From the NCBI GenBank assembly GCA_903927755.1, contig CAIYOD010000072.1:53254-117253 (forward strand): DNA of 64,000 nt, written 5' to 3'. The notes under the pieces were generated by a model, which saw only the letters and a program-made list of their open reading frames with translations, had not been told where the DNA came from and searched no databases. Numbering within the stretch: the stretch's first letter is position 1; each line of letters begins with the position of its first letter. Shown here in pieces: positions 6,933 through 61,000 of the stretch. Origin of the DNA: an uncultured Thermoleophilia bacterium. GTDB lineage: Bacteria; Actinomycetota; Thermoleophilia; UBA2241. Made by a program: the position numbers and the translations under genes.

Positions 6933-6934
6933 GG

Positions 6935-7519: not shown

Positions 7520-7571
7520 AAAAAGAGCGCCGCCGGGCCCTGATGGCGTACGGCAACGCTGCACCCCCTTT

Positions 7572-7586
7572 CCGTCTCTCGGGACG
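7572..7586 (-). promoter_or_regulatory. candidate PyrR-binding RNA hairpin in the pyr leader
   Basis: Leader RNA reads CGUC-CCGAGA-GACG. It matches the PyrR box core UCCNGNGAGG except at the last position. It lies about 20 nt downstream of a putative -35 TTGCTG (7631-7636) and -10 TACAGT (7607-7612). Confidence 0.5.
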
Positions 7587-7744
7587 TGGATTAAAGGTCG
7601 AGTCGTACTGTAGCAGCCGCGCCGGGGCCGCAGCAAGGTCGGGGGACGCGTCCTCGGCGTCGGAATCGGCACAAATGCATGTGCGGCTGTGGGCCCGGCG
7701 GCGATGCCGGTCCGGGCGGCCTTCCCTGGGTGCCGGCGCGGGAG

Positions 7745-9567: not shown

Positions 9568-10515
9568 TCACCACTTGAACTCGTTCTCGTTCACCCCAGT
9601 GTCCACGTCGGCGAGCAGGTCGTCGCTCTCGCCGAAGAGGATGCGTTCGCGCCGCCGCGGCTGGTCGTCCTCGGCGGCGTCTCCGTCATCGGCCGGACGA
9701 GCGGCCGTGATCTCCGGGTCGTCGCCCGGCGGCCGGCCCGGCTGGCTCATGGTGTCGTCCGGCGCCGGCGACGGGGCTTCACGCCGCGCAGCCTCTCCTT
9801 CAGGCGCAACGTGCACGCCCGCCTGAACACCTCCGCGTCCGCGCGCCGGCGCGACAGCGGGAGTGTCGGGCACCGGTCGCTGCGGCGTCTCCCGCTGGGT
9901 AACGGGGGGCTTCGGCGGCTGCACAGGCGCGACCTCGACACGCTCGGGCTCCGGCGCTCGAACCTCGGGAGTCTCGGGACGCTCCGGCACGGATTCGCGC
10001 GCTATGGCCTCCTTGATGGCCTCCGCGTGCCGCGAGAAGTCCGGCGCCGGCGGGACGGCCGCCGCCGCTACGTCTGGCTGCTCCTGCAGCAACCTCATGT
10101 AGCCCTCGAGGAGCTGCCGGAACTTGAAGCGGAAGTCCTCCTCGGCACTCTTGAGCTTGGCCATCGACTGCTCGATCGCCTGGCGCTCGGAGTAGGCCTC
10201 GTTCACCATCTGGCGCGACTTGAGCTCCGCGTCCTGCAGGATGAGCTGCGACTGCTTGTTGGCGTTCTGCTTCTGCTCCTCGGCGCTGGCCTGCGCGTTG
10301 ATCAGGGTCTTCTGCAGCGTGTCCTCGATGCGCTTGTAGCCGGCGACCTTCTCCTCCAGCGCCTCGACCCGGTCCTGCAGGTCGATGTTCTCCTTGAACA
10401 GGCGCTCGTACTCGTCGGCGATCTGATCCAGGAATTCGTCAACCTCGACGTCGGCATAGCCGCGCATCCCGCGCTTGAACTCCTTGTGGCGGATGTCGAG
10501 CGGTGTGAGCTTCAT
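9568..10515 (-). CDS. divIVA: cell-division protein DivIVA (Wag31-like)
   Basis: MKLTPLDIRHKEFKRGMRGYADVEVDEFLDQIADEYERL, followed by a coiled coil and a Pro/Ala-rich C-terminal tail. Confidence 0.93.
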   Translation of the reverse strand: MKLTPLDIRHKEFKRGMRGYADVEVDEFLDQIADEYERLFKENIDLQDRVEALEEKVAGYKRIEDTLQKTLINAQASAEEQKQNANKQSQLILQDAELKSRQMVNEAYSERQAIEQSMAKLKSAEEDFRFKFRQLLEGYMRLLQEQPDVAAAAVPPAPDFSRHAEAIKEAIARESVPERPETPEVRAPEPERVEVAPVQPPKPPVTQRETPQRPVPDTPAVAPARGRGGVQAGVHVAPEGEAARREAPSPAPDDTMSQPGRPPGDDPEITAARPADDGDAAEDDQPRRRERILFGESDDLLADVDTGVNENEFKW

Positions 10516-10655
10516 CTTCTCCCCTCTCGTCGCGCGAGCCCTGCCGCGCGTCGTCTCCTGCTCTCTAAGTCCGACCGCCGCGGGGCCCTTCGGGCCGGCG
10601 GCCGCTCAATGGCGCTCCGTGTCCTCGTGGCCCTCCGTACAGTAGTGCGACGCGG

Positions 10656-11441
10656 CTACTTGAGTTCCTTGGCGCGCTCGGCGGCCGCATGCACGGCGAG
10701 CGCTACGGCCTCCGCGATATCGCGTTCCTCGAAGGCCGTGATGGCGGCTGCGGTCATGCCGCCGGGTGTCGCGGCGGAGGTGATCACGGCGTCCGGATCG
10801 CCTTCGCGGGCGATGACGGCTGCCGCTCCGTACACGCCGGCGACCGCGAGGCGGCGCGCCACGTCCCCGTCCAGCCCGCGTCGCACCGCCGCCCGCGCGA
10901 AGTCGCGCACCAGCATCGCGAGCATCCCAGGCATGCAGCCGGCGACGGCCGTGGCCGAGTCGAAGTGCAGCTCGTCGAGCACCACCACGTCCCCGGCGAG
11001 CGCGAACAGGTCTTCGGTGGCGCGCTCCTGTCCGCCCAGCGTGCCGGGCACGAAGAGGAACACGCCGAGCCCCAGGCTCGCGGCGACGTTGGGCATGACG
11101 CGCGCGACGTGGGCGTCGGCTGGCAGCGCCGCGCGGAGCTCCTCGAGCGTGACGCCCGCGGCGACCGACACGAGAGCGCGAGCGCCGAGCAGCGGAGCCG
11201 TCTCGGCGAGTACGGCGGCGACGTGCTGCGGCCGCACCGCGACGATGACGACGTCGGAAGCCTCGACGAGACCGGCAAGATCGGCGGCGACCGACGCGCC
11301 GGTCTCTTCGGCGGCCTTTGCCGCGGCGTCGGCGGACACGTCGAGGTAGGTCAGTTCGGGGGGGTCGGAGAGATTCTGCCGGCTCCATCCCTGCCCCAGA
11401 GCCCGGGCGATGTGCCCCGCTCCGATGAACCCGACCCTCAT
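10656..11441 (-). CDS. proC: pyrroline-5-carboxylate reductase
   Basis: 261 aa, MRVGFIGAGHIARAL Rossmann N-terminus. Family-level match. Confidence 0.85.
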   Translation of the reverse strand: MRVGFIGAGHIARALGQGWSRQNLSDPPELTYLDVSADAAAKAAEETGASVAADLAGLVEASDVVIVAVRPQHVAAVLAETAPLLGARALVSVAAGVTLEELRAALPADAHVARVMPNVAASLGLGVFLFVPGTLGGQERATEDLFALAGDVVVLDELHFDSATAVAGCMPGMLAMLVRDFARAAVRRGLDGDVARRLAVAGVYGAAAVIAREGDPDAVITSAATPGGMTAAAITAFEERDIAEAVALAVHAAAERAKELK

Positions 11442-11501
11442 CGCGGCCCCCCGGCGCGAGGCGCCTGAGGCAGGCCGGGCACGATGCGGGAGCGCCCGGG
11501 G

Positions 11502-12038
11502 TCAGAACTGATTGAAGAAGCCCTTCTCGATGAGCCTCGCGCGCTCCTCCGCCGAGACCTCGACGTTGCGCGGGGTGAGCAGGAAGATCTTCTCGCCGAC
11601 CCGCTGCATGCCGCCGTCCATGGCGTACGTGAGGCCGCTGCAGAAGTCGATGAGTCGCTTGGCCAGTTCAGTGTCCGAGCCCTGCAGGTTGATGATCACC
11701 GGGACGTCGACCTTGAACTTGTCGGCGATCTGCTGGGCGTCGTTGAAGTTCTTCGGGATGACGAGGTGGACCTCGACGCGCGCCGGGCGAGCCGGCTCGA
11801 GGGCGCGCACGTTCTGCTGGGACGACGACGGGGCGCGGCGGCGCGGTTCGTCGGCGAAGATGTCGTCGTAGTCGTTGCGCCCCTTGCCGCTGTTCAGCTT
11901 GCGGACGTTCGGGCGCTCCTGATACGAGCGTTCGAGCTCTTCGTGCGGCGCAAGAGTCTCATCCTCGTCGTACTCGTCCTCGTCATCGGCGATGCCGAAG
12001 TAGACCGCCACCTTGTGCCACGAATCGCCTAGGCCCAT
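11502..12038 (-). CDS. sepF: cell-division protein SepF
   Basis: 178 aa with an acidic N-terminus. The C-terminal SepF domain ...VHLVIPKNFNDAQQIADKFKVDVPVIINL is present. Confidence 0.92.
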   Translation of the reverse strand: MGLGDSWHKVAVYFGIADDEDEYDEDETLAPHEELERSYQERPNVRKLNSGKGRNDYDDIFADEPRRRAPSSSQQNVRALEPARPARVEVHLVIPKNFNDAQQIADKFKVDVPVIINLQGSDTELAKRLIDFCSGLTYAMDGGMQRVGEKIFLLTPRNVEVSAEERARLIEKGFFNQF

Positions 12039-12056
12039 CAGGTCCCTCCCTACGGG

Positions 12057-12749
12057 TCAGAAGAGCACGCTCCCGACACGGACGATGGTCGCCCCTTCCT
12101 GGACGGCCACGTCGTAGTCGGCACTGGTACCCATCGATAGCTGCTCGAAAGTATACGTTCCGCTCCACGTGGTAGAAAGCCGTTCGGCCGACTCGCGCGC
12201 CCGCACGAAGAAGGGGCGCGCCTCCTCGGGGTCGTCGAAGAGCGGCGGCATGCACATGAGGCCGGTGAAGCGCACCTTGGGGCACGCCGCCGCCTCCTCG
12301 AGGAAGGCGTCGACCTCCGCGAGCGGCACGCCGCTCTTGCTCTCCTCCCCGCCGATGTTGACCTCCAGCAGTACGTCGGTGGCGTTCGCGGCCCTCGCCT
12401 CGATCTCCTGCACGACGCTCATGCTCCCGACTGAATGGATGAGGCTGACGATCGGCAGCACGAGCTTCGTCTTGCGACTCTGCAGGTGACCGATGAAGTG
12501 GTAGTCGAAGGCGTCGCCGTAGAGCTCGTGCTTGGCCACGAGGTCCTGGGCGCGGTTCTCGCCGATCAGGCGGATGCCGGCGTCGCGCAGCGCGCCCAGG
12601 TGCTCCGCGGCCACGTACTTGGTGGCGACGAGGACGCGCACGTCTGCCGGGTCGCGGCCAGCCGTCCCGGCCGCCTCGGCGACCCGGCTCTCGACCTCCG
12701 CGAACCGCTCACGGACCTTGTCCACATCGGGGATGAACTGTCTGACCAC
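12057..12749 (-). CDS. yggS: YggS-family pyridoxal-phosphate homeostasis protein
   Basis: 230 aa. The TKYV motif and FIGHLQSRK (PLP-binding Lys) are present. Confidence 0.9.
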   Translation of the reverse strand: MVRQFIPDVDKVRERFAEVESRVAEAAGTAGRDPADVRVLVATKYVAAEHLGALRDAGIRLIGENRAQDLVAKHELYGDAFDYHFIGHLQSRKTKLVLPIVSLIHSVGSMSVVQEIEARAANATDVLLEVNIGGEESKSGVPLAEVDAFLEEAAACPKVRFTGLMCMPPLFDDPEEARPFFVRARESAERLSTTWSGTYTFEQLSMGTSADYDVAVQEGATIVRVGSVLF

Positions 12750-12785
12750 GTCTTTCCTCCTCGGCGGCCTACTTCTGGGGCCGCC

Positions 12786-35111: not shown

Positions 35112-35759
35112 TCAGCCTCCCCCCTCCGCTCCGTTCCCCGAAGGGCGCGCCTGTGTCCATGGCAGCTTGACGCGATGTTCTTCGCCGGCGAGCAGCCGCT
35201 GGATGTTGCCGCGATGCGCCCACCACACCAGGATCGCCACGAGCACGCCGGCGATCTCATAGGGGAGCGGTACGTCGAGGGCGATGGTGAGCACCGGGAC
35301 CAGCAGCGCGGCCACCAGTGAAGCCACGCTGACGTACCTGGTCACCACGATGAGCACGAGCCACGTGGTGAAGATGATCACGAAGGCCAGCGGGACGAGG
35401 GCGAGAACCACACCGGCCCCCGTGGCGATGCCTTTGCCGCCCTTGCCTTTGAGGAAGACGGAGTACATGTGGCCCACGACCGGCGCGGCGGCGATGAAGA
35501 TGGCCGCCCAGGGCGTGAAGAGCGCAGCCGCGATCGCCGCGGGAACGTAGCCCTTGAGGATGTCCAGGCACATGACGACCGCGCCGGCCTTCTTGCCGAG
35601 CACGCGGAACACGTTCGTGGTGCCGACGTTGCCCGACCCGTGCTCGCGCACGTCGACGCCATAGAACACCTTGCCGACGACGACCCCGAAGGGGATCGAC
35701 CCGACGACGTAGGCGAGGCCGAGGAGGAGGAGGAACCCGAGCGCCTGGACGACGATCAC
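35112..35759 (-). CDS. plsY: glycerol-3-phosphate acyltransferase PlsY
   Basis: 215 aa membrane protein with GSGNVGTTN motif. Confidence 0.93.
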   Translation of the reverse strand: MIVVQALGFLLLLGLAYVVGSIPFGVVVGKVFYGVDVREHGSGNVGTTNVFRVLGKKAGAVVMCLDILKGYVPAAIAAALFTPWAAIFIAAAPVVGHMYSVFLKGKGGKGIATGAGVVLALVPLAFVIIFTTWLVLIVVTRYVSVASLVAALLVPVLTIALDVPLPYEIAGVLVAILVWWAHRGNIQRLLAGEEHRVKLPWTQARPSGNGAEGGG

Positions 35760-37063
35760 TTCTTGCCCTTGAAATCGATCACGAGCGGGACGCCCTCGAG
35801 GCCGAACTGCGCCCGCAGCCGGTTCTCGACATAGAAGCCGAAGTCACGCGTGACCAGCGTGCGGTCGTTGATCTCGATGGCCATGCGTGGCGGTGAGGTG
35901 CCGAACTGGGCGATGTAGTACATCTTGAGGCGCTTGCCGTGCTTCTGCGGCATCGGACGGTCGGCGGCGAGCTCCGCCAGCGCCCGGTTGAGGGCGCGGG
36001 TCGAGATGTGCGCCGTGTAGAGCGCGTCGAGCTCGGCGACCTTGCGCAGGAGTTCCTTGACGCCGCGACGGGACTCGGCCGACACGGCGATGACCGGCGG
36101 CCGCTGGCGGAGCTTGCGCTTGGCGATCCCGGCGATCTCCTCCAGGTCCGGCTCGGCGATGTCGCATTTGTTCACCGCGAGGACAGTGGCGCAGTTGCGC
36201 CGGGTCGCCTCCGTGCAGATCGACAGGTCGAGCTCGCCGAAGCGCATGGTGGCGTCGACGACGATGATGGCGACGTGGGCGCGGTCCAGACTCTGGACGC
36301 TCCGCAGATAGGAGTAGTACTCGACGCCGCTCACCTTGGCAGCCTTGCGCATGCCGGCCGTGTCAATGAAGCGGAAACGGCCGGATTCGGTGTCGATCAC
36401 GCTATCGATGGCGTCGCGCGTCGTCCCGGCGAGCTCGCTCACGATCGTGCGCGTCTCGCCGGCGATGGCGTTGAACAGCGACGACTTGCCGGCGTTGGGG
36501 CGGCCGACGATGGCGACGGGCGTCTCGTCCGGCGCTTCTTCCGCCTCGTTGTCGTCCGGTGCGGCGTCGGTGACCTCGACGAGACGATCCAGCAGTTCGC
36601 CGCTCCCGGTGCCGTGGACCGCCGATACCAGCAGCGGTTCTCCAAGGCCGAGCGCGTAGATCTCCGGCGCCGTGGCCGTGCTGGCCGGGTCGTCCATCTT
36701 GTTGGCGACCACGATGACCGGCGCCTTGGAGCGACGGAGCACGTCGGCGATGGCGTAATCGTCGGTCAGCGGGCCGGCGCGGCCGTCGAGGATGAACAGG
36801 ACGACGTCGGCCGCCGCGATGGCGTGTTCGACCTGCTCGCGGATGTGCCCGGCGAACGGAGCGCCCTCGGTGGTGTCGTAGCCGCCGGTGTCGACGAGCA
36901 GCAGCCGGTGGCCTGTCCATTCCACCTCGATCTCCTTGCGGTCGCGCGTGACGCCGGGCGTCTCGTGGACGACGGTGGCGCGCGTGCCGGTGAGGCGATT
37001 GACGAGAGTGGACTTGCCGGCGTTGGGGGAGCCGACGATGGCGACGATCGGGAGTGTTTTCAT
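35756..37063 (-). CDS. der: ribosome-biogenesis GTPase Der (EngA)
   Basis: 435 aa. Tandem G domains (GSPNAGKST and GRPNAGKSS) plus a KH-like C-terminus. Confidence 0.95.
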   Translation of the reverse strand: MKTLPIVAIVGSPNAGKSTLVNRLTGTRATVVHETPGVTRDRKEIEVEWTGHRLLLVDTGGYDTTEGAPFAGHIREQVEHAIAAADVVLFILDGRAGPLTDDYAIADVLRRSKAPVIVVANKMDDPASTATAPEIYALGLGEPLLVSAVHGTGSGELLDRLVEVTDAAPDDNEAEEAPDETPVAIVGRPNAGKSSLFNAIAGETRTIVSELAGTTRDAIDSVIDTESGRFRFIDTAGMRKAAKVSGVEYYSYLRSVQSLDRAHVAIIVVDATMRFGELDLSICTEATRRNCATVLAVNKCDIAEPDLEEIAGIAKRKLRQRPPVIAVSAESRRGVKELLRKVAELDALYTAHISTRALNRALAELAADRPMPQKHGKRLKMYYIAQFGTSPPRMAIEINDRTLVTRDFGFYVENRLRAQFGLEGVPLVIDFKGKK

Positions 37064-38391
37064 CTGGACAGTCTAGCAAACGCGTCGCCGAGGGTCTCGG
37101 CGACGACGAGACGGCCGCCGCAGGCGGCCTCCAGGTCGCCCTCGGTGACGTCGTCGAGCGTGCGGCCCAGGTCGGCCGGAAGCCAGACGCGAGGGGCCGC
37201 GAGCCACTCGCCGTCGGCGAGCGGGTCGCGGCGCAGCGCGTCCAGCACTTCGGCGCCGCCGAGCAGCCCGGTCACGGTGACGTGCGGTCCGAAGACGGCG
37301 TTCTCGACGGCGAAGGAGCGCACCGGGACGCCAGCCGCCGGCTCCAGGATCGCGCCGACGCGGTCCAGCACCGGCGGCGCCAGCGTCCCGCAGAGCAGGC
37401 GCACGCCCGAGACGGCGCCCGACGGCGGCGCCGGGGCTTCGCCGTCCCGATCCTTGCCCCCGGCCCACGAAGCCGCCAGCTCGGCGGCCTCGGCGACCGT
37501 CGCGGCGGAGATGCCGACACCGTTCTCGTACTGCTCGGGCGCGTCACCAGCCGGAGGGTCGGCGCCGGCCAGCAGGTAGAACTCGTCGGCGGCGTGCACG
37601 AACGCGCTCCCGCGCCGCCGGACGAACTCGCTCTGCCACGTCTCGACGGCGCCGATGACCCGTCGGGCGTCCTCTGGCGTCGCGCGGCTGAGGTCTCCCT
37701 CGGCGGCGAGCGAGACGGGCACGACGCCGAGGTCGACCACGGCCTCCAGTGCGCCGGCCCGCAGCACGGTCTCGGCGAGCACGTCGCCGTCGTTCCACCC
37801 CGGGCAGAGCACGACCTGGAGATGCAGGTCGAGGCCCGCGGCGGCAAGCCGCTCCAGCACGCCGCGAGAACCTGCCGCCGCCCGCCCCATGAGGCGGACG
37901 CGGGCGGCGTCGTCCAAGGCGTGCAGCGAAACGTACAGCGGAGAAAGCCGGAGCTCCTCGATGCGCTCGATATCGGGCTCGCTCAGATTCGTGAGCGTCA
38001 TGAAGTTCCCGTGCAGGAAGGACAATCGATAGTCGTCGTCCTTGACTGACAGGGCCGCGCGCAGGCCTGCCGGCACCTGGTCGACGAAACAGAAGCGACA
38101 GGCGTTGCGGCAGGTTCGCGGGTCGTCGCCGAGCCCGCCGCGATCGAGTGAGATGCCATGCCACTCGCCGGGGTTCGGCGCGACCACGAGGTCCAGCGGG
38201 TGGCCGTCGCGCAGCACGGAGAGCCAGAGGGTGCCGTCGGCGGCGGCGTCTTCCACGTCGAGGACGTCGAGCGGGACGCCGCCGTTCAGGGCGACGATGC
38301 GGTCGCCGGCGCGAAGTCCGCCGCGGGCGGCGGCGTCTCGAGCGTCGGCGACGAGGACGCCGCCGCAGGCGGCTTCCGCGCCGTCAGCCAC
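37060..38391 (-). CDS. DUF512 protein with N-terminal PDZ and a radical-SAM-like CxxxCxxC cluster
   Basis: PDZ segment GGVLVADARDAAARGGLRAGDRIVALNG and cluster CRNACRFCF. Probable GTG start overlapping the ispH stop. The upstream portion of the track ORF is probably not coding. Confidence 0.75.
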   Translation of the reverse strand: MADGAEAACGGVLVADARDAAARGGLRAGDRIVALNGGVPLDVLDVEDAAADGTLWLSVLRDGHPLDLVVAPNPGEWHGISLDRGGLGDDPRTCRNACRFCFVDQVPAGLRAALSVKDDDYRLSFLHGNFMTLTNLSEPDIERIEELRLSPLYVSLHALDDAARVRLMGRAAAGSRGVLERLAAAGLDLHLQVVLCPGWNDGDVLAETVLRAGALEAVVDLGVVPVSLAAEGDLSRATPEDARRVIGAVETWQSEFVRRRGSAFVHAADEFYLLAGADPPAGDAPEQYENGVGISAATVAEAAELAASWAGGKDRDGEAPAPPSGAVSGVRLLCGTLAPPVLDRVGAILEPAAGVPVRSFAVENAVFGPHVTVTGLLGGAEVLDALRRDPLADGEWLAAPRVWLPADLGRTLDDVTEGDLEAACGGRLVVAETLGDAFARLSR

Positions 38392-45588: not shown

Positions 45589-46365
45589 TCACCCGATGAC
45601 GGGCGCCGGCGCCGTGATGCGGCTGACCACGATGTCGCCGAAGTGCCGCGTCTGACGTAGACGGGCCTCACCGCTGGAGTGCAGTTCGAGCAGCGCGAAG
45701 AACGTGACCGCCCGCTCGAGCCTGCCCCGCGGAGCCACGGCCGCGAAGGTGAACTCGCCCTCGTCGTCGAGGATGAGCCTGAGGCGGCGAAGTTCCTTGA
45801 CGAGAGACACGGCCAGGTCGGCGAGGTGACTGGTGTCGGGGACCGGAGGCTCGCGCAGCAACGGGGTGAGTGCGTCCGCCAGCACGCCGGCTGAGAGCGC
45901 TCCGTCGACGACGCGCCGGCGCAGCAGCCCGGCTGGGACCGGCGCGTGGCGGTAGAGGCGCGCGCTGTGTTCCTCCCACGCCGTCCGGAGCGAGCCGGCG
46001 GCGTTGCGGAACTGGCTGTAGCGGACGAGCCGCTCAAGCAGCTGACGCGCCGCCTCGTCGGGGTCCAGATCCTCGAACTCCTCCTCGACATCCTCCTCCA
46101 GCAGGAGGCGCGACTTCATCTCGAGCAGCGCGGCGACGAGCACCACGAACTGCGAGGTCGCGTCGAGGTCGAACTCACCCGTGTCGGCCAGATGGACGAC
46201 GTACTCCGCGATGATCCGCGAGACGCGGACCTCCCAGATGTCGATCTCGTCACGCAGGATCAGCGTGACCAGCAGGTCGAACGGTCCGTCGAAGACGTCG
46301 AGGTCGAGCTCGAGCATCACGGGAGGTGCGGCGACGGCGCTGGCCTCAGCACGCATCGCCGTCAC
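45589..46365 (-). CDS. scpA: segregation and condensation protein A (kleisin)
   Basis: 258 aa. ScpA-type kleisin N-terminus, FDGPFDLLVTLILRDEIDIWEVRVSRI. Confidence 0.9.
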   Translation of the reverse strand: MTAMRAEASAVAAPPVMLELDLDVFDGPFDLLVTLILRDEIDIWEVRVSRIIAEYVVHLADTGEFDLDATSQFVVLVAALLEMKSRLLLEEDVEEEFEDLDPDEAARQLLERLVRYSQFRNAAGSLRTAWEEHSARLYRHAPVPAGLLRRRVVDGALSAGVLADALTPLLREPPVPDTSHLADLAVSLVKELRRLRLILDDEGEFTFAAVAPRGRLERAVTFFALLELHSSGEARLRQTRHFGDIVVSRITAPAPVIG

Positions 46366-46388
46366 CTCCGCTCTTGACCATGCTCTTC

Positions 46389-47588
46389 CTAGTCTTCCGG
46401 CTGATTGACGAACGACGGGATGTCGAAGTCGTTGTCGTCGAACCGCGGCGCGGGACCGAAGAGCGGACCGCGCTCAGGCTTGGGCTCGGCTTTGGGGGCG
46501 GGGCCGCGGCTCTCGGGGCTCCGCGGCGGCGCCTGCGCGTGTCTCACGTCGTCACCGAACCCGGTGGCCACGACGGTGATGGAGATCTTGCCCTCGAGCT
46601 TCTCGTCGACCACGGCGCCGAAGATGATGTTGGCGTCGTCGTCGGCCGCCTCGCTGATGACGCCGGCGGCCTCGTTGACCTCGAAGAGCGTGAGGTCCTC
46701 GCCGCCGGTGATGTTGAGCAGCAGCCCGCGCGCGCCCTCGATGCTCGTCTCGAGGAGCGGCGAGTGGATCGCCATGTCGGCGGCGGCTTGGGCACGGTTC
46801 TCGCCGCCGGCGACGCCGATGCCGAGCAGGGCGGTGCCGGCGTCGTGCACGATCGTGCGCACGTCGGCGAAGTCCAGGTTGATGAGACCCGGCACGGTGA
46901 TGAGGTCGGTCACGCCCTGCACGCCCTGCCGCAGGATGTCGTCCGCGTGCTGGAACGCCTCGACGACGCTCGCATTGCGCTCGACGACGTCCAGCAGGCG
47001 ATCGTTGGGAATGGAGATGACCGTGTCGGCCACCTCCCGCAGCGCGTCGATACCGTCGAGCGCCTGGCGCTGGCGGCGATTGCCCTCGAAACCGAAGGGC
47101 TTGGTGACGATGGCGATGGTGACGGCGCCGAGCTCTCTGGCGATCTGCGCCACGACGGGCGCGCCGCCGGTGCCCGTGCCGCCGCCTTCGCCGGCGGTCA
47201 CAAAGACCAGATCGGCGCCGCGCAGTGCGGCCTTGAGCTGGTCGCGGCTGACTTCCATGGCCTCACGGCCGACTTCGGGATCGGCTCCGCCGCCGAGTCC
47301 GTGCGTGATCTCCTGCCCGATGTGGATCTTGACGTCCGCATCGCACACGTCGAGCTGCTGCACGTCGGTGTTGACGGCGATGAACTCGACGCCCTTGACG
47401 CCGGAGTCGACCATCCGGTTCACGGCGTTGGTGCCGGCGCCGCCGATGCCGACCACCTTGATGGTCGTCACGTACGGCCGGCCCTTGACTGGAGCGTCCG
47501 CGCCCGCGGCATCCGGGATAGACCCGCCGCTGTCGGTGCGCCGGAAGAGCTCGCTCAGTCCATCCTTCATGCTAGGACGATCTGCCAT
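46389..47588 (-). CDS. ftsZ: cell-division GTPase FtsZ
   Basis: 399 aa. Motifs IKVVGIGGAGTNAVNRM and GGGTGTG, the NTD and T7 loop, and a C-terminal conserved peptide DIPSFVNQ. About 40 aa N-terminal extension. Confidence 0.95.
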   Translation of the reverse strand: MADRPSMKDGLSELFRRTDSGGSIPDAAGADAPVKGRPYVTTIKVVGIGGAGTNAVNRMVDSGVKGVEFIAVNTDVQQLDVCDADVKIHIGQEITHGLGGGADPEVGREAMEVSRDQLKAALRGADLVFVTAGEGGGTGTGGAPVVAQIARELGAVTIAIVTKPFGFEGNRRQRQALDGIDALREVADTVISIPNDRLLDVVERNASVVEAFQHADDILRQGVQGVTDLITVPGLINLDFADVRTIVHDAGTALLGIGVAGGENRAQAAADMAIHSPLLETSIEGARGLLLNITGGEDLTLFEVNEAAGVISEAADDDANIIFGAVVDEKLEGKISITVVATGFGDDVRHAQAPPRSPESRGPAPKAEPKPERGPLFGPAPRFDDNDFDIPSFVNQPED

Positions 47589-48330
47589 TCAGCACCTCCC
47601 GCGCGAGGGCGCGGTACGATTCTGCTCCCCTGCCTTTGGGATCGTACTTGAGCACCGAGGAGCCCGTCACGGGCGCCTCGGCGAACTTGATGGTCTTGCG
47701 CACGACGGTGTCGAAGACGAGGTCGCCGAAGTTCTCGCGCAGGACCTCGATCGACTCCTTGCCGTGGTGGGTGCGCGCGTCGAACAACGTCGGCAGGATG
47801 CCCTGGATGCGCACGTCCGGGTTGAGGTTCTCGCGGATCATCTCCAGCGTCTTCTCCAGCTGCAGCAGCCCGCGCAGCGAGAGGTACTCGCACTGCACAG
47901 GCACGATGACCCCCTCGGAGGCGGTCAGCGCGTTGATCGTGAGCAGCCCCAGAGACGGCGGCGTGTCGATGAGGATGTAGTCGTACTTGTCGCGGACGGC
48001 GTCGAGGGCGCGCTGCAGAGCCCGCTCGCGCCCGATCATCGTGGCCAGGGCCATCTCCGCACCGGCCAGGTCGATGGTGGAGGCGGCGACGTCCAGTTCG
48101 CGCTCGTAGATGACGTCCTCGATGGGCGTCCGGTGCACGAGGACGTCGTACATGCTCTTCTCGAGGCCCTCGGTGTCGATGCCCTGGCTCATGGTCAGGT
48201 TGCCCTGGGGGTCCATGTCGACGGCGAGCACGCGCAAGTCGTGCTCGCGGAGGGCCGCGCCGAGGTTCACCGTCGAGGTGGTCTTGGCCACCCCACCCTT
48301 CTGATTGGCGAACGCGAGAACATGCGCCAT
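47572..48330 (-). CDS. orphan ParA/Soj-family ATPase
   Basis: 252 aa. Deviant Walker A NQKGGVAKTT. Position upstream of scpA matches M. tuberculosis Rv1708. Confidence 0.88.
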   Translation of the reverse strand: MAHVLAFANQKGGVAKTTSTVNLGAALREHDLRVLAVDMDPQGNLTMSQGIDTEGLEKSMYDVLVHRTPIEDVIYERELDVAASTIDLAGAEMALATMIGRERALQRALDAVRDKYDYILIDTPPSLGLLTINALTASEGVIVPVQCEYLSLRGLLQLEKTLEMIRENLNPDVRIQGILPTLFDARTHHGKESIEVLRENFGDLVFDTVVRKTIKFAEAPVTGSSVLKYDPKGRGAESYRALAREVLNGRSS

Positions 48331-48390
48331 GTGAGCGTTACCCCTGTGTCGAGTCCACGTCAGAACGCAGTTCGGGCCGCAGGCAAGAAT

Positions 48391-48420
48391 CCCTGCATGA
48401 GACGGGCCCCGCAGCGTCTG
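48391..48420 (-). terminator. probable terminator hairpin downstream of yajC
   Basis: RNA reads GGGCCCCGCAG-acg-CUGCGGGGCCC, an 11-bp perfect stem. No clean U-tract. Confidence 0.5.
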
Positions 48421-48471
48421 CGGGGCCCGTGGTCACACGCTGCGTCCTGGTCGGTGCCGGGGACGGCGGCG

Positions 48472-53994: not shown

Positions 53995-54744
53995 TCAGCC
54001 CGCCAGAGCTTCGAGGACGTCCTCGGAGATGTCGAAGTTCGCGTAGACCTCCTGGACGTCGTCGCTGTCTTCCAAGGCGTCCATGATCTTCATGGTCTTG
54101 CGGGCGTCGTTCTCCTCGAGCTTGACCGTGGTCTTGGGGATCATCGTGAGGTCCGCGTTCTCGAACTCGATGCCGGCCGCCGTGAGCGCGTCGCGAACGG
54201 CGGCGAAGTCGGATGGTTCGGTGAGCACCTGGAACTCGTCGCCGTCCTGCACGACGTCTTCGGCGCCGGCGTCGATGGCCGCGGCCATGATGTCGTCCTC
54301 TCCATACTTGCCGCCGTCGACGACGATCGATCCACGGCGCTCGAAGCCCCACGCGACGGCCCCGGGCTGCGCGAGCTGTCCACCGTGCTTGCTGAAGATG
54401 TTGCGCACCTCGGCGGCCGAGCGGTTCTTGTTGTCGGTGAGGACGTCGACGATGATCGCGACGCCTGCCGGCCCGTAGCCCTCGTAGAGGATGCTCTCGT
54501 ACTGCTCGCCCTCGACCCCGCCGCCACCGCGCCCGATGGCCTTCTCGATGTTGTCCTTGGGCATGGACTCGGCCTTGGCCTTCTCGATGGCGTTGGCCAG
54601 CGAGATGTTCATGGACGGGTCGGTGCCGCCCTCACGCGCCGCGACGGTGATCGCCCGGGACAGCTTGCTGAACAGCTTGCCGCGCCTGGCGTCGGTCTTG
54701 CCCTTCTTGTGCTTGATGGTCGCCCACTTGGAGTGCCCGGACAC
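53995..54744 (-). CDS. yebC: YebC/PmpR family DNA-binding transcriptional regulator
   Basis: MSGHSKWATIKHKKG..., 249 aa. Confidence 0.93.
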   Translation of the reverse strand: MSGHSKWATIKHKKGKTDARRGKLFSKLSRAITVAAREGGTDPSMNISLANAIEKAKAESMPKDNIEKAIGRGGGGVEGEQYESILYEGYGPAGVAIIVDVLTDNKNRSAAEVRNIFSKHGGQLAQPGAVAWGFERRGSIVVDGGKYGEDDIMAAAIDAGAEDVVQDGDEFQVLTEPSDFAAVRDALTAAGIEFENADLTMIPKTTVKLEENDARKTMKIMDALEDSDDVQEVYANFDISEDVLEALAG

Positions 54745-55518: not shown

Positions 55519-56403
55519 TCACCAGCCGCGATGCTGGATCTTGGCTTCTTCGGGCATCCGGGCGGCGTCGATGCCGGGCATCGCGTCACCGAGGCCCACG
55601 CTGACCTCGGCCAGGATGGCGGCGTCGCGGTAGTTCGTCGCCGCCTTGACGATGGCGTTGGCGCGGCTCTGCGGATCCTCGCTCTTGAAGATGCCGGAGC
55701 CGACGAAGACGCCCTCGGCGCCGAGCTGCATCATGAGCGCCGCGTCGGCCGGGGTCGCGATGCCGCCGGCCGAGAAGTTCACGACCGGGAGCTTGCCGTT
55801 CTCGGCCACCCACTTGACCAGCTCGATCGGCGCCGGCAGCTCTTTCGCGATGACGTACAGCTCGTCCTCGTCCAGCGTCTGCAGCTTGCGGATCTGCCCC
55901 ATGATCGTGCGCATGTGGCGGACGGCCTCGACGACGTCGCCGGTGCCGGCCTCGCCCTTGGTGCGGATCATCGCAGCGCCCTCGCTGATGCGGCGAAGCG
56001 CCTCACCGAGGTTGACGGCGCCGCAGACGAAGGGCACGTCGAACTTCCACTTGTTGATGTGGTTGGCCTCGTCGGCGGGCGTGAGCACTTCGCTCTCGTC
56101 GATGTAGTCGACCTCGAGAGACTGCAGGATCTGCGCCTCGACGAAGTGGCCGATGCGAGCCTTGGCCATCACGGGGACGGACACGCAGGCCTGGATCTCC
56201 TGGATCTTGGTGGGGTCGGCCATGCGGGCCACGCCGCCCTGGGCGCGAATGTCCGAGGGCACTCTCTCGAGCGCCATCACCGCGCACGCGCCGGCGTCTT
56301 CGGCGATCTTCGCCTGCTCGGCGTTGGTGACGTCCATGATGACGCCGCCCTTGAGCATGTCGGCGAGACCGCTCTTCACTCGCATGGTGCCGATATCAGT
56401 CAC
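55519..56403 (-). CDS. pdxS: pyridoxal 5'-phosphate synthase lyase subunit
   Basis: Probable GTG start ([25 protein letters not shown]) with GGAGG six nt upstream. 294 aa. Confidence 0.93.
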
Positions 56404-56517
56404 GGGGAACCTCCGGTTACTTTTGCACGCCAATCCTACCGCAGCGCCTGAATCCGCCGCTACCGGCGCGACGCCACGAAATGCCCAGCTTTGCGGGGAA
56501 AACTGGACGGATTGGAC

Positions 56518-58590
56518 TCAGCTCTTGTGCGCCTCTTCCTTGTCCTTCTGGGCCTGCTCGACGATCTTGGCGGTGAGGTGCGCCGGCACCTCTTCGTAGC
56601 GCAGGAACTCCATGTGGTAGTCGCCGCGCCCTCCCGTCATCGACGTGAGGTCGGGCGCATACGTGAGCATCTCCGCCAGCGGTACCTCGGCGCCGACCAC
56701 GTTGTTGTGGCCGCGCGGCGTGGTGCCCAGCACGCGACCGCGCCGCGAGTTGAGGTCGCCGATGATGTCGCCGACGTTCTCATCGGGCACGGTGATCTCC
56801 ACGTTCATGATCGGTTCGAGCAGGGCCGGCTGGGCCTTCTCGCAGGCCGCCTTGAAGCCGATGGAGCCGGCGATCTGGAAGGCCATGTCGCTCGAGTCCA
56901 CAGGGTGATACTTGCCGTCGTAGAGCTTGACGTGGACGTCGACCACCGGGTAGCCCGCGAGGAACCCGTCGTCCATGGCGGCGCGCACGCCCTTCTCGAC
57001 CGCCGGGATGAAGTTGCGCGGGATCGCGCCGCCGACGATCTTGTTCTCGAATTCGAACCCATCGCCGCGCGGTTGCGGACGGACCTCCATCCAGGTGTCG
57101 GCGAACTGGCCGCGGCCACCGGTCTGCTTCTTGTGCTTGCCCTCGGCCTTCGCCGTGCCCTTGATCGTCTCGCGGTACGGGACGCGCGGCGGCTTGAGCT
57201 CGACCTCGACGCCGAAGCGACGCTTCATGCGGTCCACCGTGACCTCGACGTGCACCTGGCTCATGCCGCCGACGATCATCTCGCCGGTCTGGTCGTCGTG
57301 GTGGACCTCGAGCATCGGGTCTTCCTCGGACAGGCGACGAAGGGCCGTGATGACCTTGTCCTCCTCGCCCTTGCTCTTGGCGGTGACGGCGAAACTCATG
57401 AGCGGCGCCGGGAAGCCGATGGGCGGGAAGTTGACGGCGTCGGCGTCGGCGCACAGCGTATCGCCGGTGACGACGTCCTTGAGCTTGGCGATGGCACCGA
57501 GGTCGCCGGCGACCAGATCGCCGGAGGCCTTGCTCTCCTTGCCCATCGTCTTGAGGATCTGGCCGAGACGCTCCTTGTGGCCGTCGCGCGCGATGACGAC
57601 CTGGGAGTCGCTGCTCATGGTCCCCTGGAAGACGCGGAACACGTTGACGTGACCGCTGAACGGGTCGGCGAGCGTCTTGAAGACGAAGGCGACGGCCGGC
57701 TGCGAGGGATCGCAGTCGAGCTCGACCTCGGCGTCGCCCTTCAGGGCCTTCGGGTGTGTGACGTCGACCGGCGACGGCGCGAGCGCGAGGACGTCGAAGA
57801 TGTGATCCACCGCGATGTTGGCCGTCGCCGACGCGCAGGCGACCGGGTAGAGCTGAGCGGTGGCGACGGCGGCGGCGAACGCCGCGTTGAGCTCGTCCGC
57901 CGTGATCTCCTCTTCCATCAGGTACTTCTCGGCGAGGTCGTCGTTGGTGCTCGCGACCGCGTCGATGAGCTTGTCGCGAGCCACAGCGGCAGCGTCGGCG
58001 AGCTCGGCGGGGATGTCGCCCACCGTCGCCTTGCCGTCGTTGTACGTGTGCGCCTTCATGGTGAGCAGGTCGACCACGCCGCTGAAGTCGTGTTCCTTGC
58101 CGATGGGCAGCTGCACGGCGACGACCTGGGCGCCGAAGGACTCCTGCAGGAGGCCGAGAGCGTGGTCGAAGTCGGCGCGCTCGCGGTCGAGCATGTTGCA
58201 GACGATGACGCGTCCGAGACCTCGGGTCTCAGCGCGATCCCAGAGCCGCTCGTGCTGGACCTCGACGCCGAGCACGGTGTTGACGACCACCAGCGCGGTC
58301 TCGACGACCTGCAGGCTGGCGATGGCGTCGGCGAGGAAGCTCGAGTCGCCGGGCGTGTCGATCAGGTTGAACGAGAGACCGCCGCGGTCGACGTGCGCCA
58401 GGCCGGCCGAGAGGCTCATCTGGCGCTTCTTCTCGTCGTCGTCCCAGTCGGAGACGGTCGTGCCGTCGGCCACGGAGCCCAGTCGGGTGATCGCCCCGGC
58501 GTCGAACAGCAACGCCTCGAACAGCGACGTCTTGCCGGTACCACGGTGGCCGACGAGGGCGATGTTCCTGATCTTGGCTGGGTCGTTCAT
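56518..58590 (-). CDS. elongation factor G paralog (EF-G2-like translational GTPase)
   Basis: 690 aa with the full five-domain EF-G architecture. G1 reads GHRGTGKT. G3 reads DTPGDSSF, with His replaced by Asp. G4 reads NMLD, with Lys replaced by Met. Confidence 0.88.
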   Translation of the reverse strand: MNDPAKIRNIALVGHRGTGKTSLFEALLFDAGAITRLGSVADGTTVSDWDDDEKKRQMSLSAGLAHVDRGGLSFNLIDTPGDSSFLADAIASLQVVETALVVVNTVLGVEVQHERLWDRAETRGLGRVIVCNMLDRERADFDHALGLLQESFGAQVVAVQLPIGKEHDFSGVVDLLTMKAHTYNDGKATVGDIPAELADAAAVARDKLIDAVASTNDDLAEKYLMEEEITADELNAAFAAAVATAQLYPVACASATANIAVDHIFDVLALAPSPVDVTHPKALKGDAEVELDCDPSQPAVAFVFKTLADPFSGHVNVFRVFQGTMSSDSQVVIARDGHKERLGQILKTMGKESKASGDLVAGDLGAIAKLKDVVTGDTLCADADAVNFPPIGFPAPLMSFAVTAKSKGEEDKVITALRRLSEEDPMLEVHHDDQTGEMIVGGMSQVHVEVTVDRMKRRFGVEVELKPPRVPYRETIKGTAKAEGKHKKQTGGRGQFADTWMEVRPQPRGDGFEFENKIVGGAIPRNFIPAVEKGVRAAMDDGFLAGYPVVDVHVKLYDGKYHPVDSSDMAFQIAGSIGFKAACEKAQPALLEPIMNVEITVPDENVGDIIGDLNSRRGRVLGTTPRGHNNVVGAEVPLAEMLTYAPDLTSMTGGRGDYHMEFLRYEEVPAHLTAKIVEQAQKDKEEAHKS

Positions 58591-58703
58591 CCGGGGTCTC
58601 CTCGTTCTCTTACGCCGGCCTCCCGCCCGCGGGCGCGCGAGGCGGCCGGTCGTGTCCTGTCGGAAGGATGAAGTCTAGCACAGGGGGCATGCGGAGATGC
58701 GCC

Positions 58704-59978
58704 TCAGACAGCCTCCGTGGGCGAGCTCTCAGCGGATGCCCCGGCGAGCTCGCGAGCAGCCTGCGCGGCGCCTCCGGGGTCGGGGTGGAACGACTGCGCC
58801 GGAGACTGGTGGCGACGGGCCGGCGAGCCGCCGGCCAGAGTGAGCGACTTGAAGCCGTACTTCTCGCGCACCTTGTCGACCGCCTCGCCGAGCGCCACCT
58901 CGCGCCAGCCGTCGTCCATGGTGAGCTGGAAGGCGTTGTGGGTGAGGCCGCTGACGCTCACCCCGACGAGGCGCACCCAGCGGGCGCCGACGTCGAGCTC
59001 GTCCAGCAGCGCCATGGCCGTCTCGTGGATGGGCCGCACGGCGCTGACCGGGCGCGGCAGCGTGCGGCGCCGACCCACGGTGTGGAACGTGTTGAAGCGC
59101 ACCTTGAGCGCCACGGTGCGCGCCGCCAGGCCCTTGCCACGCAACTCTGCGACGGCGCTGTCGGTGAGCGAGAGCAGCGTGGCGCGCAGGAACTCCTGGT
59201 CGTTGACGTCGTCGTCGAAGGTGATCTCGCGGCCGACCGACTTGGGCAGCGGCCGACCGCTGCGCACCGGCGAGAAGCTGCGCCCCAGGGCGAGCTGGCG
59301 CAGCCCGTGCGCGCCCTTGCCGAACGCCGCCGCGAGCAGCGGGAACGGCACGTCCTGCAGCATGCCGACCGTGGTGAGGCCGAGGGCGGTGAGCCGCTCC
59401 TGGGTGACGGGGCCGATGCCGCAGACCTCGCCCACGGGCAGGTCGCGCAGACGGCCGTGCACGTCGGCGGCGATGAGCTCGCCGATGCCGGCCGGTTTGT
59501 GGAGGCCGGCGGCCAGCTTGGCCAGCAGCTTGGTGGGCCCGATGCCGATGGAACAGGTGACGCCGTGCGCGTCGTACACCTGCTCCTGGATGCGGTGGGC
59601 GATGGTGCGCGGCGGGCCGAACAGCCGCCGGCTGCCGGTGACGTCCAGATAGGCCTCGTCGATGGACGCCACTTCGACGAGGTCGGTGTAGTGCCCCAGG
59701 AGTTCGACCAGCGAGCGGTGGACGGCCAAGTAGGCCCTCATGTCGACCGGCAGGAACACCCCGTGCGGGCAGAGCCGCTCGGCCTGCGTGATGGGCAGCG
59801 CGCTGTGCACCCCGTAGGCGCGCGCCTCGTAGGAGCAGGCCGAGACCACCCCGCGCGCCCCGCGCTCGCCGCCGACGATGACCGGCAGGCCGTGCAACTC
59901 GGGGCGACGCGCCTGCTCCACGGAGGCGAAGAAGGCGTCCATGTCGAGATGGAGGATCGATCTGCCGGAGGCGAACAT
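58704..59978 (-). CDS. dinB: DNA polymerase IV (Y-family)
   Basis: MFASGRSILHLDMDAFFASVE..SIDEAYLDVTG; 424 aa including a C-terminal extension. Confidence 0.93.
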   Translation of the reverse strand: MFASGRSILHLDMDAFFASVEQARRPELHGLPVIVGGERGARGVVSACSYEARAYGVHSALPITQAERLCPHGVFLPVDMRAYLAVHRSLVELLGHYTDLVEVASIDEAYLDVTGSRRLFGPPRTIAHRIQEQVYDAHGVTCSIGIGPTKLLAKLAAGLHKPAGIGELIAADVHGRLRDLPVGEVCGIGPVTQERLTALGLTTVGMLQDVPFPLLAAAFGKGAHGLRQLALGRSFSPVRSGRPLPKSVGREITFDDDVNDQEFLRATLLSLTDSAVAELRGKGLAARTVALKVRFNTFHTVGRRRTLPRPVSAVRPIHETAMALLDELDVGARWVRLVGVSVSGLTHNAFQLTMDDGWREVALGEAVDKVREKYGFKSLTLAGGSPARRHQSPAQSFHPDPGGAAQAARELAGASAESSPTEAV

Positions 59979-60632: not shown

Positions 60633-61000
60633 TCAGCCCTCCCCCGGCACGTCGAGCCGGGGGACGTCGCCCCACAGCGTCTCGAGCCGGTAGAAGTCGC
60701 GGGCCGTCGTCGTGAACACGTGCACCACGACGTCGATGAAGTCGACGAGGATCCACTCGCCCTCGCGCTCCCCCTCCACACGAGCGGGGCGGCGATCGGC
60801 GCGGATCCCGTGCTGGATCTCGTCGGCAATGGCCTTCGTCTGGCGCGTGTTGGCGCCACTGACGACCACGAAGTAATCGGTGTACGACACGGCCTCGTCC
60901 ATGCTGAGGACGACGATGTCCTGCGCCTTCTTGCCGGCGGCCAGCGCGACGATGTCGCGGGCCAGGCGCTCGGAGGTCGTGGGTTCTGGGAGGGCGGCTA
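60633..61000 (-). CDS. rsfS: ribosome silencing factor RsfS (Iojap-like); start codon unresolved
   Basis: ...SERLARDIVALAAGKKAQDIVVLSMDEAVSYTDYFVVVSGANTRQTKAIADEIQ...WILVDFIDVVVHVF aligns to full-length RsfS. No in-frame ATG, GTG or TTG lies between the upstream stop (60998) and the conserved N-terminal helix. Confidence 0.75.

Follow-up and report, generated by a model that had tools for sequence, protein, structure and literature searches.

A conserved elongation factor G paralogue of probable EFG II type with replaced G3 histidine and G4 lysine in uncultured Thermoleophilia

Introduction

In a survey of 305 genomes, elongation factor G (EF-G) always belonged to the EFG I subfamily when it was the only EF-G, and EFG II proteins always occurred together with another EF-G (PMC3150367). 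EFG II is separated from EFG I by the signature positions Gly16, Leu25, Thr291, Gly333, and Lys352 (1WDT numbering); it also conserves additional positions in domain IV and has a relaxed G2, of which a Ser alone is kept (Margus 2011, PMC3150367). Here, we describe a gene encoding an EF-G paralogue in a 64,000-nucleotide stretch of DNA (hereafter, the window) from an uncultured Thermoleophilia bacterium (GenBank assembly GCA_903927755.1, contig CAIYOD010000072.1, positions 53,254–117,253 of the forward strand); all positions below are those of the window. The source organism has a G+C content of ∼70%, and the protein is currently annotated in the databases as plain “elongation factor G.” An original prediction, made from the sequence alone, had pointed to the loss of a catalytic His and of the Lys of the NKxD motif in this protein.

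The roles of the residues concerned have been described for EF-G1 of Mycobacterium smegmatis, in which Ile22 and Ile64 are gate residues, Asp23 contacts the sarcin-ricin loop (SRL), and His88 is catalytic (bioRxiv 10.64898/2026.05.25.727771). In canonical EF-G, the gate residue Ile22 positions the neighboring His88, and the H88Y replacement in EF-G1 nearly abolishes the GTPase (bioRxiv 10.64898/2026.05.25.727771). The second EF-G of the same species (MsmEF-G2), in which this His is replaced by Tyr, has no ribosome-dependent GTPase, is unable to recycle ribosomes, and traps post-translocation ribosomes under stress (bioRxiv 10.64898/2026.05.25.727771). For EF-G2 of Bacteroides thetaiotaomicron, translocation without GTP hydrolysis is reported (Han 2023, as cited in PMC12775393), and carbon starvation strongly induces Bacteroides fusA2, whereas fusA drops.

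Results

Motifs of the G domain and their conservation

The paralogue is encoded on the minus strand by an open reading frame that runs from an ATG at 58590-58588 to a TGA at 56520-56518. Its product contains five Pfam domains, every one far over its cut-off, which bears out the full five-domain EF-G architecture that had been predicted. When the full-length protein was searched against the PDB with phmmer, the match to Staphylococcus aureus EF-G had E = 5e-175 (587 bits), and the nearest solved structures were canonical EF-Gs because domains III–V are very conserved.

The motifs were compared in register using the phmmer alignment to S. aureus EF-G, which is gap-free across the N-terminal G domain. 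In the P-loop (G1), AHIDAGKTT of S. aureus corresponds to GHRGTGKTS, with Arg16 in place of the gate Ile and Gly17 in place of the SRL-contacting Asp. Switch I (G2) reads RQMSLS against RGITIT; here, Arg56 is retained, Met58 stands for the gate Ile, and Ser59 for the Mg-coordinating Thr. In G3, Asp82 (GAC, 58345-58347) occupies the position of the catalytic His, and in G4, Met133 (ATG, 58192-58194) occupies that of the Lys of NKxD, with Asn132 and Asp135 retained. A canonical His or Lys was found at neither position in this alignment, and the predicted readings DTPGDSSF and NMLD stand as true replacements. Relative to M. smegmatis EF-G1, the paralogue has Arg16 for Ile22, Gly17 for Asp23, and Asp82 for His88, together with the conservative changes Ile64 to Met58 and Thr65 to Ser59, and it retains His21 and Arg62 as His15 and Arg56. 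The nucleotide-binding scaffold (the P-loop GxxxxGK[ST], DxxG/DTPG, Ser59 of switch I, and Asn132 and Asp135 of G4) is intact and is invariant in the orthologues.

The altered motifs are strongly conserved. Among the 120 closest clusters listed (69–94% identity), G3 was DTPGD[SPW]SF in 119 and G4 was NM[LM]D in nearly all. The columns of His15, Arg16, Asp82, Met133, and Asp135 were invariant in a 47-sequence alignment, and the motif residues were likewise conserved across 119 orthologues, among which Ser59 was also invariant. The same motif set was present in a more distant group with 53–57% identity. In the 119 orthologues, 51–53% of the columns of domains III, IV, and V were invariant (53% in domain III), domain V was the most conserved domain, and the tip loops of domain IV, HKKQTGGRGQ and YHPVDSS, were intact and invariant. 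The acidic G' helix that meets L7/L12 was partly eroded, with E to D, E to S, and D to N at positions 210, 214, and 216, and these positions varied between orthologues.

Both GAC (against CAC) and ATG (against AAG) lie one nucleotide from the canonical codon, and some copies in long-read metagenome-assembled genomes (MAGs) are frameshifted, as might be expected of a decaying duplicate or of a sequencing artefact at two single-nucleotide positions. We give this explanation practically no chance, because more than 119 independent orthologues and about 60 species representatives share these residues, the pairwise ratio of nonsynonymous to synonymous substitution rates (dN/dS) against close orthologues was 0.06–0.14 overall and 0.09–0.18 for the G domain alone, and the reading frame, the Shine-Dalgarno site, and a conserved promoter-like box are intact. 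The conservation across the 119 orthologues and the low dN/dS refute a pseudogene in the making or a pair of base errors (CAC to GAC and AAG to ATG), and the pattern of conservation is that of a functional gene.

Assignment to the EFG II subfamily

From these and the following sequence features, we assign the paralogue with high confidence to the EFG II / EF-G2 subfamily (Margus 2011), of which it is a lineage-specific Thermoleophilia member and no new type of factor. For the comparison with the subfamily, the query was aligned with the best 150 representatives from an exhaustive HMMER search, 141 of which were full-length. All five EFG II signature residues are present: Gly14 and Leu23 in the P-loop region (Gly in 109 and Leu in 120 of the 141 full-length relatives), and Thr306, Gly350, and Lys369 in domain II (T in 109, G in 136, and K in 138 of the 141). 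In the Lys-rich loop of domain IV, the basic residues Lys487, Lys488, and Lys533 are present and are 91–96% conserved in the relatives. The set includes one canonical EF-G, with Ala at the position of Gly14, V, A, and G at the domain II positions, and I, R, and A at the domain IV positions; Leu23, which it shares, is the only signature position without a difference.

The paralogue also resembles EFG II in its relaxed G2, which lacks the RGITI consensus and has Ser instead of Thr at position 4 (Ser59), in the location of its gene outside the str operon, and in the concentration of its divergence in domains I–II with a conserved domain IV. It differs from the description of 2011 in two respects (PMC3150367). 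The survey gives NKxD for G4, whereas the paralogue reads NMLD; Lys was absent at this position in 60 of 149 aligned relatives, and, judged from our larger sample, conservation of NKxD in EFG II is a majority rule only. In addition, its RQMSL is unlike the “qqRSV” given for Actinobacteria, in a survey in which the uncultured Thermoleophilia were unsampled.

Profile searches point to the same subfamily. The best NCBIfam model was NF009381 (893 bits), which also ranked first for other relatives of EFG II type. The paralogue scored 670.7 bits on the EF-G equivalog TIGR00484, against a cut-off of 659.4, other EFG II-type proteins scored 634–815 bits, and a canonical EF-G scored 1148.8 bits. When only the N-terminal 153 amino acids were searched, the best solved relatives were EF-G2s (9k0z, 7uvp, and 1wdt) and not canonical EF-Gs: the identity in the N-terminal G domain was 44% to 9k0z (114 bits), 41% to 1wdt, 38% to 7uvp, and 32% to S. 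aureus EF-G. The residues of 9k0z fit those described for M. smegmatis EF-G2 at an 11-residue offset.

[quoted passage not shown] A division of labour between paralogues is documented (PMC3150367; bioRxiv 10.64898/2026.05.25.727771), and domains III–V are intact here. However, such EF-G2s retain motifs G1–G5 as well as the His and require GTPase activity (bioRxiv 10.64898/2026.05.25.727771), MsmEF-G2, the closest solved relative in the G domain, cannot recycle, and the signature residues are those of EFG II and not of spdEFG2. We regard a recycling function as improbable.

Comparison with characterised EF-G2 proteins

In the solved EF-G2s, G3 and G4 are DTPGY/TKLD for the mycobacterial type, DAPGY/TKLD for Thermus, and DCPGS/NQLD for Bacteroides. 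The best functional analogue of the paralogue is EF-G2 of B. thetaiotaomicron (fusA2, BT2167; PDB 7uvp/8dmf, deposited as “TetQ”), which likewise lacks both the His and the G4 Lys, has a P-loop that starts with Gly, and is a slow translocase without GTP hydrolysis according to the study as cited above. It belongs to a different phylum, with 38% identity in the N-terminal G domain, and it has Ser and Gln at the His and Lys positions instead of Asp and Met, and YGYSV in G2 instead of RQMSL. The mycobacterial EF-G2 (fusA2; PDB 9k0z) is the closest solved relative in the G domain, comes from the same phylum, and also has its His replaced (by Tyr). The paralogue, however, retains His15 and Arg56 and lacks the G4 Lys, whereas both the His of the P-loop and the Arg of switch I are lost from MsmEF-G2 (GPSGG, QQRSVS), in which G4 still has its Lys (TKLD). 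EF-G-2 of Thermus thermophilus (PDB 1wdt/2dy1) is an EFG II protein with a GHxGxGKTTL P-loop and a residue other than His (Tyr) after DxPG; it differs in keeping the G4 Lys (TKLD) and in being reported as active, unlike the GTPase-dead EF-G2s, and its N-terminal G domain is 41% identical. Canonical EF-G (EFG I, the product of fusA in the str operon) has the same five domains and identical motifs at the tip of domain IV, whereas AHIDAGKT, RGITI, DTPGH, and NKxD are all altered in the paralogue and its gene is not in the str operon; in place of the two gate Ile residues and the His of canonical EF-G, it has Arg16, Met58, and Asp82.

We then counted the residues at the two positions in the 151 aligned sequences (query included). 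The residue after DxPG was Tyr in 64, Phe in 32, Asp in 16, Ala, Asn, Ser, and His in 5 each, and Glu in 4, which makes Asp the third commonest residue at the His position. The second residue of G4 was Lys in 89, Arg in 23, Gln in 10, Met in 9, Gly in 9, and His in 5. These counts reflect how diverse EFG II is and do not show how abundant the two kinds of EF-G are relative to each other, as clustering at 50% leaves the canonical EF-Gs in very few clusters and EFG II in many. An argument from frequency, namely that 1 of the 150 nearest representatives was canonical, was dropped owing to this bias. In the sequences compared, loss of the catalytic His is general in the EF-G2 subfamily, and loss of the NKxD Lys has a solved precedent. 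Although the original prediction had treated the two substitutions as remarkable, they are instead the norm within EFG II / EF-G2.

The Arg16/Asp82 pair

What does appear to be distinctive is the invariant and apparently co-evolving pair formed by Arg16 and Asp82 at the positions of the gate Ile and the catalytic His. Also mildly distinctive is that Asp and Met occur together with an unchanged P-loop His and switch I Arg. When 148 diverse relatives were scored for a basic residue at P-loop position 3 and for an Asp or Glu at the His position, the counts were 12/9/8/119 (both, basic only, acidic only, neither), an association with an odds ratio of ∼20 (Fisher p = 1.5e-7, not corrected for shared ancestry).

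This pair raises the possibility that the paralogue is a rewired active GTPase, in which Arg16 and Asp82 would form a new catalytic or regulatory pair, possibly independent of the SRL, for example as a cis Arg finger and a water-orienting carboxylate. The invariance of both residues in the orthologues, their association across relatives, and the adjacency of the two positions in canonical EF-G would fit such a pair, as would the retention of His15, Arg56, and Ser59 and the GTPase activity reported for T. thermophilus EF-G2, which lacks the His. On the other side, the association statistic ignores shared ancestry, and there are 8 sequences with D/E but no basic residue and 9 with R/K but no acidic one. 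A carboxylate beside the gamma-phosphate and the SRL phosphate would be electrostatically unfavourable, and the His-less EF-G2s of Mycobacterium and Bacteroides are experimentally without GTPase, as far as the accounts cited above report. The AlphaFold2 model of the paralogue (47-sequence alignment) was of low confidence (pLDDT, the predicted local distance difference test, 66.9; pTM, the predicted template modelling score, 0.57), with pLDDT < 50 in the switch regions and at residues 81–89, and was not used. On balance, we think a rewired GTPase unlikely.

A still less likely generalisation of the same observation is that a basic/acidic pair (Arg16 or Lys with Asp82 or Glu) replaces the triad of two gate Ile residues and His as a new active-site solution, here and in scattered EFG II lineages. 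If so, the pair might constitute an intrinsic cis-Arg/carboxylate GTPase that does not need the SRL; alternatively, it might be a salt-bridge latch that holds switch II in one state and turns the protein into a nucleotide-sensing ribosome clamp.

Proposed function

We favour, with moderate confidence and by analogy with the studied EF-G2s, the reading that the paralogue is an auxiliary EF-G2 that acts at the EF-G site of the ribosome, with no GTP hydrolysis activated through His and the SRL, as an elongation factor of low-energy states. It would be a second EF-G, working beside the canonical product of a fusA gene at another place in the genome. GTP would be bound, probably at lower affinity or with faster exchange, because the Lys that packs against the base is now Met, and guanine specificity should persist through Asp135. 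Because NKxD still has its Asn and Asp, the altered base specificity offered as an alternative in the original prediction is unlikely. The roles in ribosome rescue or hibernation that it also offered are conjectural. On the ribosome, the protein would occupy the site of EF-G with domain IV in the A site, where the SRL would be unable to activate it through a histidine, and it would therefore act without canonical fast GTP hydrolysis. Two modes of action could follow: the paralogue may be a slow, hydrolysis-independent translocase, like the Bacteroides EF-G2, or it may hold post-translocation ribosomes and slow translation in energy scarcity, like the mycobacterial EF-G2.

Several observations weigh against this reading. 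GTPase activity, ribosome-dependent as well as intrinsic, and translocation are reported for T. thermophilus EF-G2 (bioRxiv 10.64898/2026.05.25.727771), and this protein has Tyr at the His position; by this analogy, loss of the His does not guarantee loss of the GTPase. The prediction of a protein that binds GTP and is impaired in its hydrolysis agrees with the related EF-G2s, but the missing His does not prove it. Compared with MsmEF-G2, the paralogue has kept a larger part of the canonical apparatus (His15, Arg56, Met58, and Ser59), and an invariant Asp82 together with Arg16 is, to judge from the sequences, beyond the needs of a merely inactive site. It also scores below the cut-offs of both groups of EF-G2 that have been studied, with 647.2 bits against 890 on NF009377 (the mycobacterial-type EF-G2 equivalog) and 553.2 bits against 1000 on NF058620 (Bacteroides-type EF-G2), and any transfer of function therefore crosses sub-subfamilies. 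The presence of a canonical fusA rests on the co-occurrence rule of PMC3150367, because none was retrieved from the same genome. Finally, as weak evidence, the TGn-TAGACT box upstream of the gene resembles an ordinary housekeeping-type promoter and no obvious stress promoter.

Genomic context and distribution

The predicted position of the gene as a stand-alone gene between pdxS and dinB was confirmed, with pdxS at 55519-56433 and dinB at 58704-59978, and neither a str operon nor another EF-G-like gene was present in the window. Core genes arrayed in a single direction fill the 64-kb window, namely carAB, pyrB, pyrR, rluD, divIVA, proC, sepF, recG, ribD, rpe, fmt, priA, metK, gpsA, der, ispH, tyrA, aroF, scpA, ftsZ, tgt, queA, ruvCAB, yebC, and pdxST, followed by the paralogue; upstream of the paralogue are dinB, a CAP-domain gene, rsfS, a LytR_C gene, yqeK, and nadD. 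The order obg-proBA-nadD-HD-LytR_C-rsfS-CAP-dinB-EFG-pdxS-pdxT-yebC-ruvCAB-queH-queA-tgt-yajC was identical on four further contigs, the proteins of which were 71–77% identical. Among the 63 loci of species representatives with at least 50% identity, dinB adjoined the paralogue in 55 and pdxS in 49, and the remaining loci were truncated at contig ends or belonged to the distant group. In the 53–57% identity group, two other contexts were found, neither of them with rpsL, rpsG, or tuf; a str operon location was thus seen in none of the three distinct genomic contexts. The conservation of this arrangement indicates a gene that is vertically inherited and long resident in the lineage.

These contexts and the profile scores bear on the idea that these bacteria have no EF-G other than the paralogue, which would then be a canonical translocase with His replaced by Asp. 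This would agree with the plain annotation as “elongation factor G,” with the marginal pass of the TIGR00484 cut-off, and with the failure to retrieve a canonical fusA from the same genomes, in look-ups limited to ±10 kb around known proteins. However, the signatures are those of EFG II and not EFG I, a canonical EF-G reaches 1149 bits on TIGR00484, no context has a str operon, a single EF-G was always EFG I in the 305 genomes (PMC3150367), and H88Y nearly abolishes the GTPase of EF-G1. A sole EF-G is in our view highly improbable.

The gene neighborhood likewise bears on the Tet(M)-like ribosomal protection that had been suggested, in which the paralogue would dislodge a drug from the ribosome as Tet(M)/Tet(O) do, or as part of a FusB-like antibiotic defence. 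Tet(M) and Tet(O) are homologous five-domain translational GTPases that act at the EF-G site; the paralogue matched Tet(M) distantly in the PDB search (E = 7.6e-53), and its gene stands alone. However, Tet(M) keeps the canonical motifs AHVDAGKTT, RGITI, DTPGHMDF, and NKID, with both the His and the Lys, whereas the paralogue is far under all tet cut-offs (297 bits against 775 on tet_protect NF012153, and far lower on the other tet models). Its domain IV loops are EF-G-like and invariant, and the gene lies in a vertically inherited array of core genes in which no mobile or resistance genes were found as neighbors. Ribosomal protection is, on these grounds, very improbable, and the suggestion is not upheld.

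A peptide-pattern scan of the genome collection returned only the paralogue and unrelated canonical EF-Gs of other phyla. All of the ∼60 species-level matches came from uncultured MAGs with the label Thermoleophilia, Actinomycetes, or Actinomycetota, and none from a cultured genus, in a scan that may miss more distant copies. A literature search on Thermoleophilia and EF-G yielded nothing useful, and the supplements of Margus 2011 do not contain the relevant taxa.

Some of the copies deserve separate mention. In the distant group, the gene at 6001-8061 of JBAZZU010000011.1, from a “Thermoleophilia” MAG with 52.8% G+C, encodes a 57%-identical copy with the motifs GHRGTGKTCL, DTPGDPSF, and NMMDRERADF, with groEL upstream and recJ and a relA/spoT-family gene downstream (L049). 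A 9.8-kb contig filed under “Deltaproteobacteria bacterium” (L013, JBLMXT010000289.1) holds a copy of 93% identity in the unchanged order CAP-dinB-EFG-pdxS-pdxT and is almost certainly a mis-binned Thermoleophilia contig. The MAG MFD02979.bin.2.115 contains two dinB-EFG-pdxS loci (L042, CAVVGY010000009.1; L058, CAVVGY010000017.1), one copy being 95% identical to the window protein and the other, at ∼80% identity, split over several frames. Either a mixture of strains or species in the bin or a degraded duplicate could account for this. At loci L047, L051, L052, L059, L061, L062, L063, and L070, all from long-read MAGs, the query aligned in at least two frames, i.e., with frameshifts; since the neighboring sequence is highly conserved, errors of assembly or indels are the probable cause, rather than genuine pseudogenes.

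The 90%-identity database cluster of the paralogue also holds many “DNA polymerase IV” entries, which are likely over-extended or fused dinB calls that reach the EF-G start and bridge two unrelated proteins. At locus L002 (6532-8004), a dinB call of 490 amino acids overlaps the ATG of the EF-G gene.

Translation-associated members of the array are yebC (53995-54744, YebC/TACO1 family), rsfS (60633-61000, ribosome silencing factor), and der/engA (35756-37072), and further upstream, at locus L001 (999-2906), are L21, L27, and obg; this order of genes is also common in bacteria without the paralogue. An FtsZ-family gene (46389-47588) lies between a ParA/MinD-like ATPase gene (47572-48432) and scpA (45589-46473), far from the sepF-ylmE-divIVA group (9568-12785).

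Upstream region

In the 113-nucleotide gap after the dinB stop codon, an extended -10-like box, CTGTGCTAGACT, was found, which is probably the gene's own promoter, as far as its sequence and conservation indicate. The box is conserved at orthologous loci down to ∼75% protein identity and is absent in the 70–71% and 53–57% groups. It was not called by a generic sigma-70 scan because no -35 box is present. Within the intergenic region (58598-58703), CTGTGCTAGACT is followed by a conserved leader start, TCATCCTTCCGACAGGA, a sequence-variable GC-rich hairpin, and the Shine-Dalgarno region ACGAGGAGA, which is invariant in the aligned leaders. A CCUU in the leader is able to pair with GAGG of the Shine-Dalgarno sequence; this pairing is invariant and hence carries no covariation evidence. 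A structured leader RNA was rejected, as RNAalifold gave -0.78 kcal/mol with essentially no covariation and the single-sequence fold had a z-score of only -1.68. An Rfam scan of the leader returned nothing above chance. The coordinates of all features of the gene are given in Table 1.

Table 1. Features of the EF-G paralogue gene and its upstream region (window positions).
Feature	Position	Strand	Basis or remark
Coding sequence, probable EFG II / EF-G2-type paralogue	56518..58590	-	690 amino acids, stop codon included in the range; open reading frame list
G domain including G' insertion, residues 6-269	57784..58575	-	Pfam GTP_EFTU
G1 / P-loop GHRGTGKT (canonical AHIDAGKT)	58528..58551	-	phmmer alignment; invariant in orthologues
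G2 / switch I RQMSL (canonical RGITI)	58411..58425	-	phmmer alignment
G3 / switch II DTPGDSSF (canonical DTPGHVDF)	58336..58359	-	phmmer alignment
G4 NMLD (canonical NKMD)	58186..58197	-	phmmer alignment
Domain II, residues 298-381, with Thr306, Gly350, Lys369	57448..57699	-	Pfam EF-G_D2
Domain III, residues 393-466	57193..57414	-	Pfam EFG_III
Domain IV, residues 468-587, with Lys487, Lys488, Lys533	56830..57189	-	Pfam EFG_IV, 158 bits
Domain V, residues 590-673	56572..56823	-	Pfam EFG_C
Extended -10-like box CTGTGCTAGACT	58672..58683	-	Sequence; in the gap after the dinB stop codon
Shine-Dalgarno sequence GAGGAG	58598..58603	-	7 nucleotides before the ATG

Discussion

The annotation “elongation factor G” conceals a distinct and strongly conserved factor, probably of the EF-G2 type, in widespread uncultured soil Actinomycetota. 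The paralogue leaves the general picture of the EF-G family unchanged. EF-G2s show that translocation or occupancy of the ribosome can be uncoupled from GTP hydrolysis, and they seem to be used in energy scarcity, which is typical for slow-growing soil bacteria. To this subfamily, the Thermoleophilia clade would add a new combination, in which His is replaced by Asp and Lys by Met while the P-loop His and the switch I Arg are retained. The invariant Arg16 and Asp82 may offer a mutational handle on what distinguishes a hydrolysing from a non-hydrolysing EF-G.

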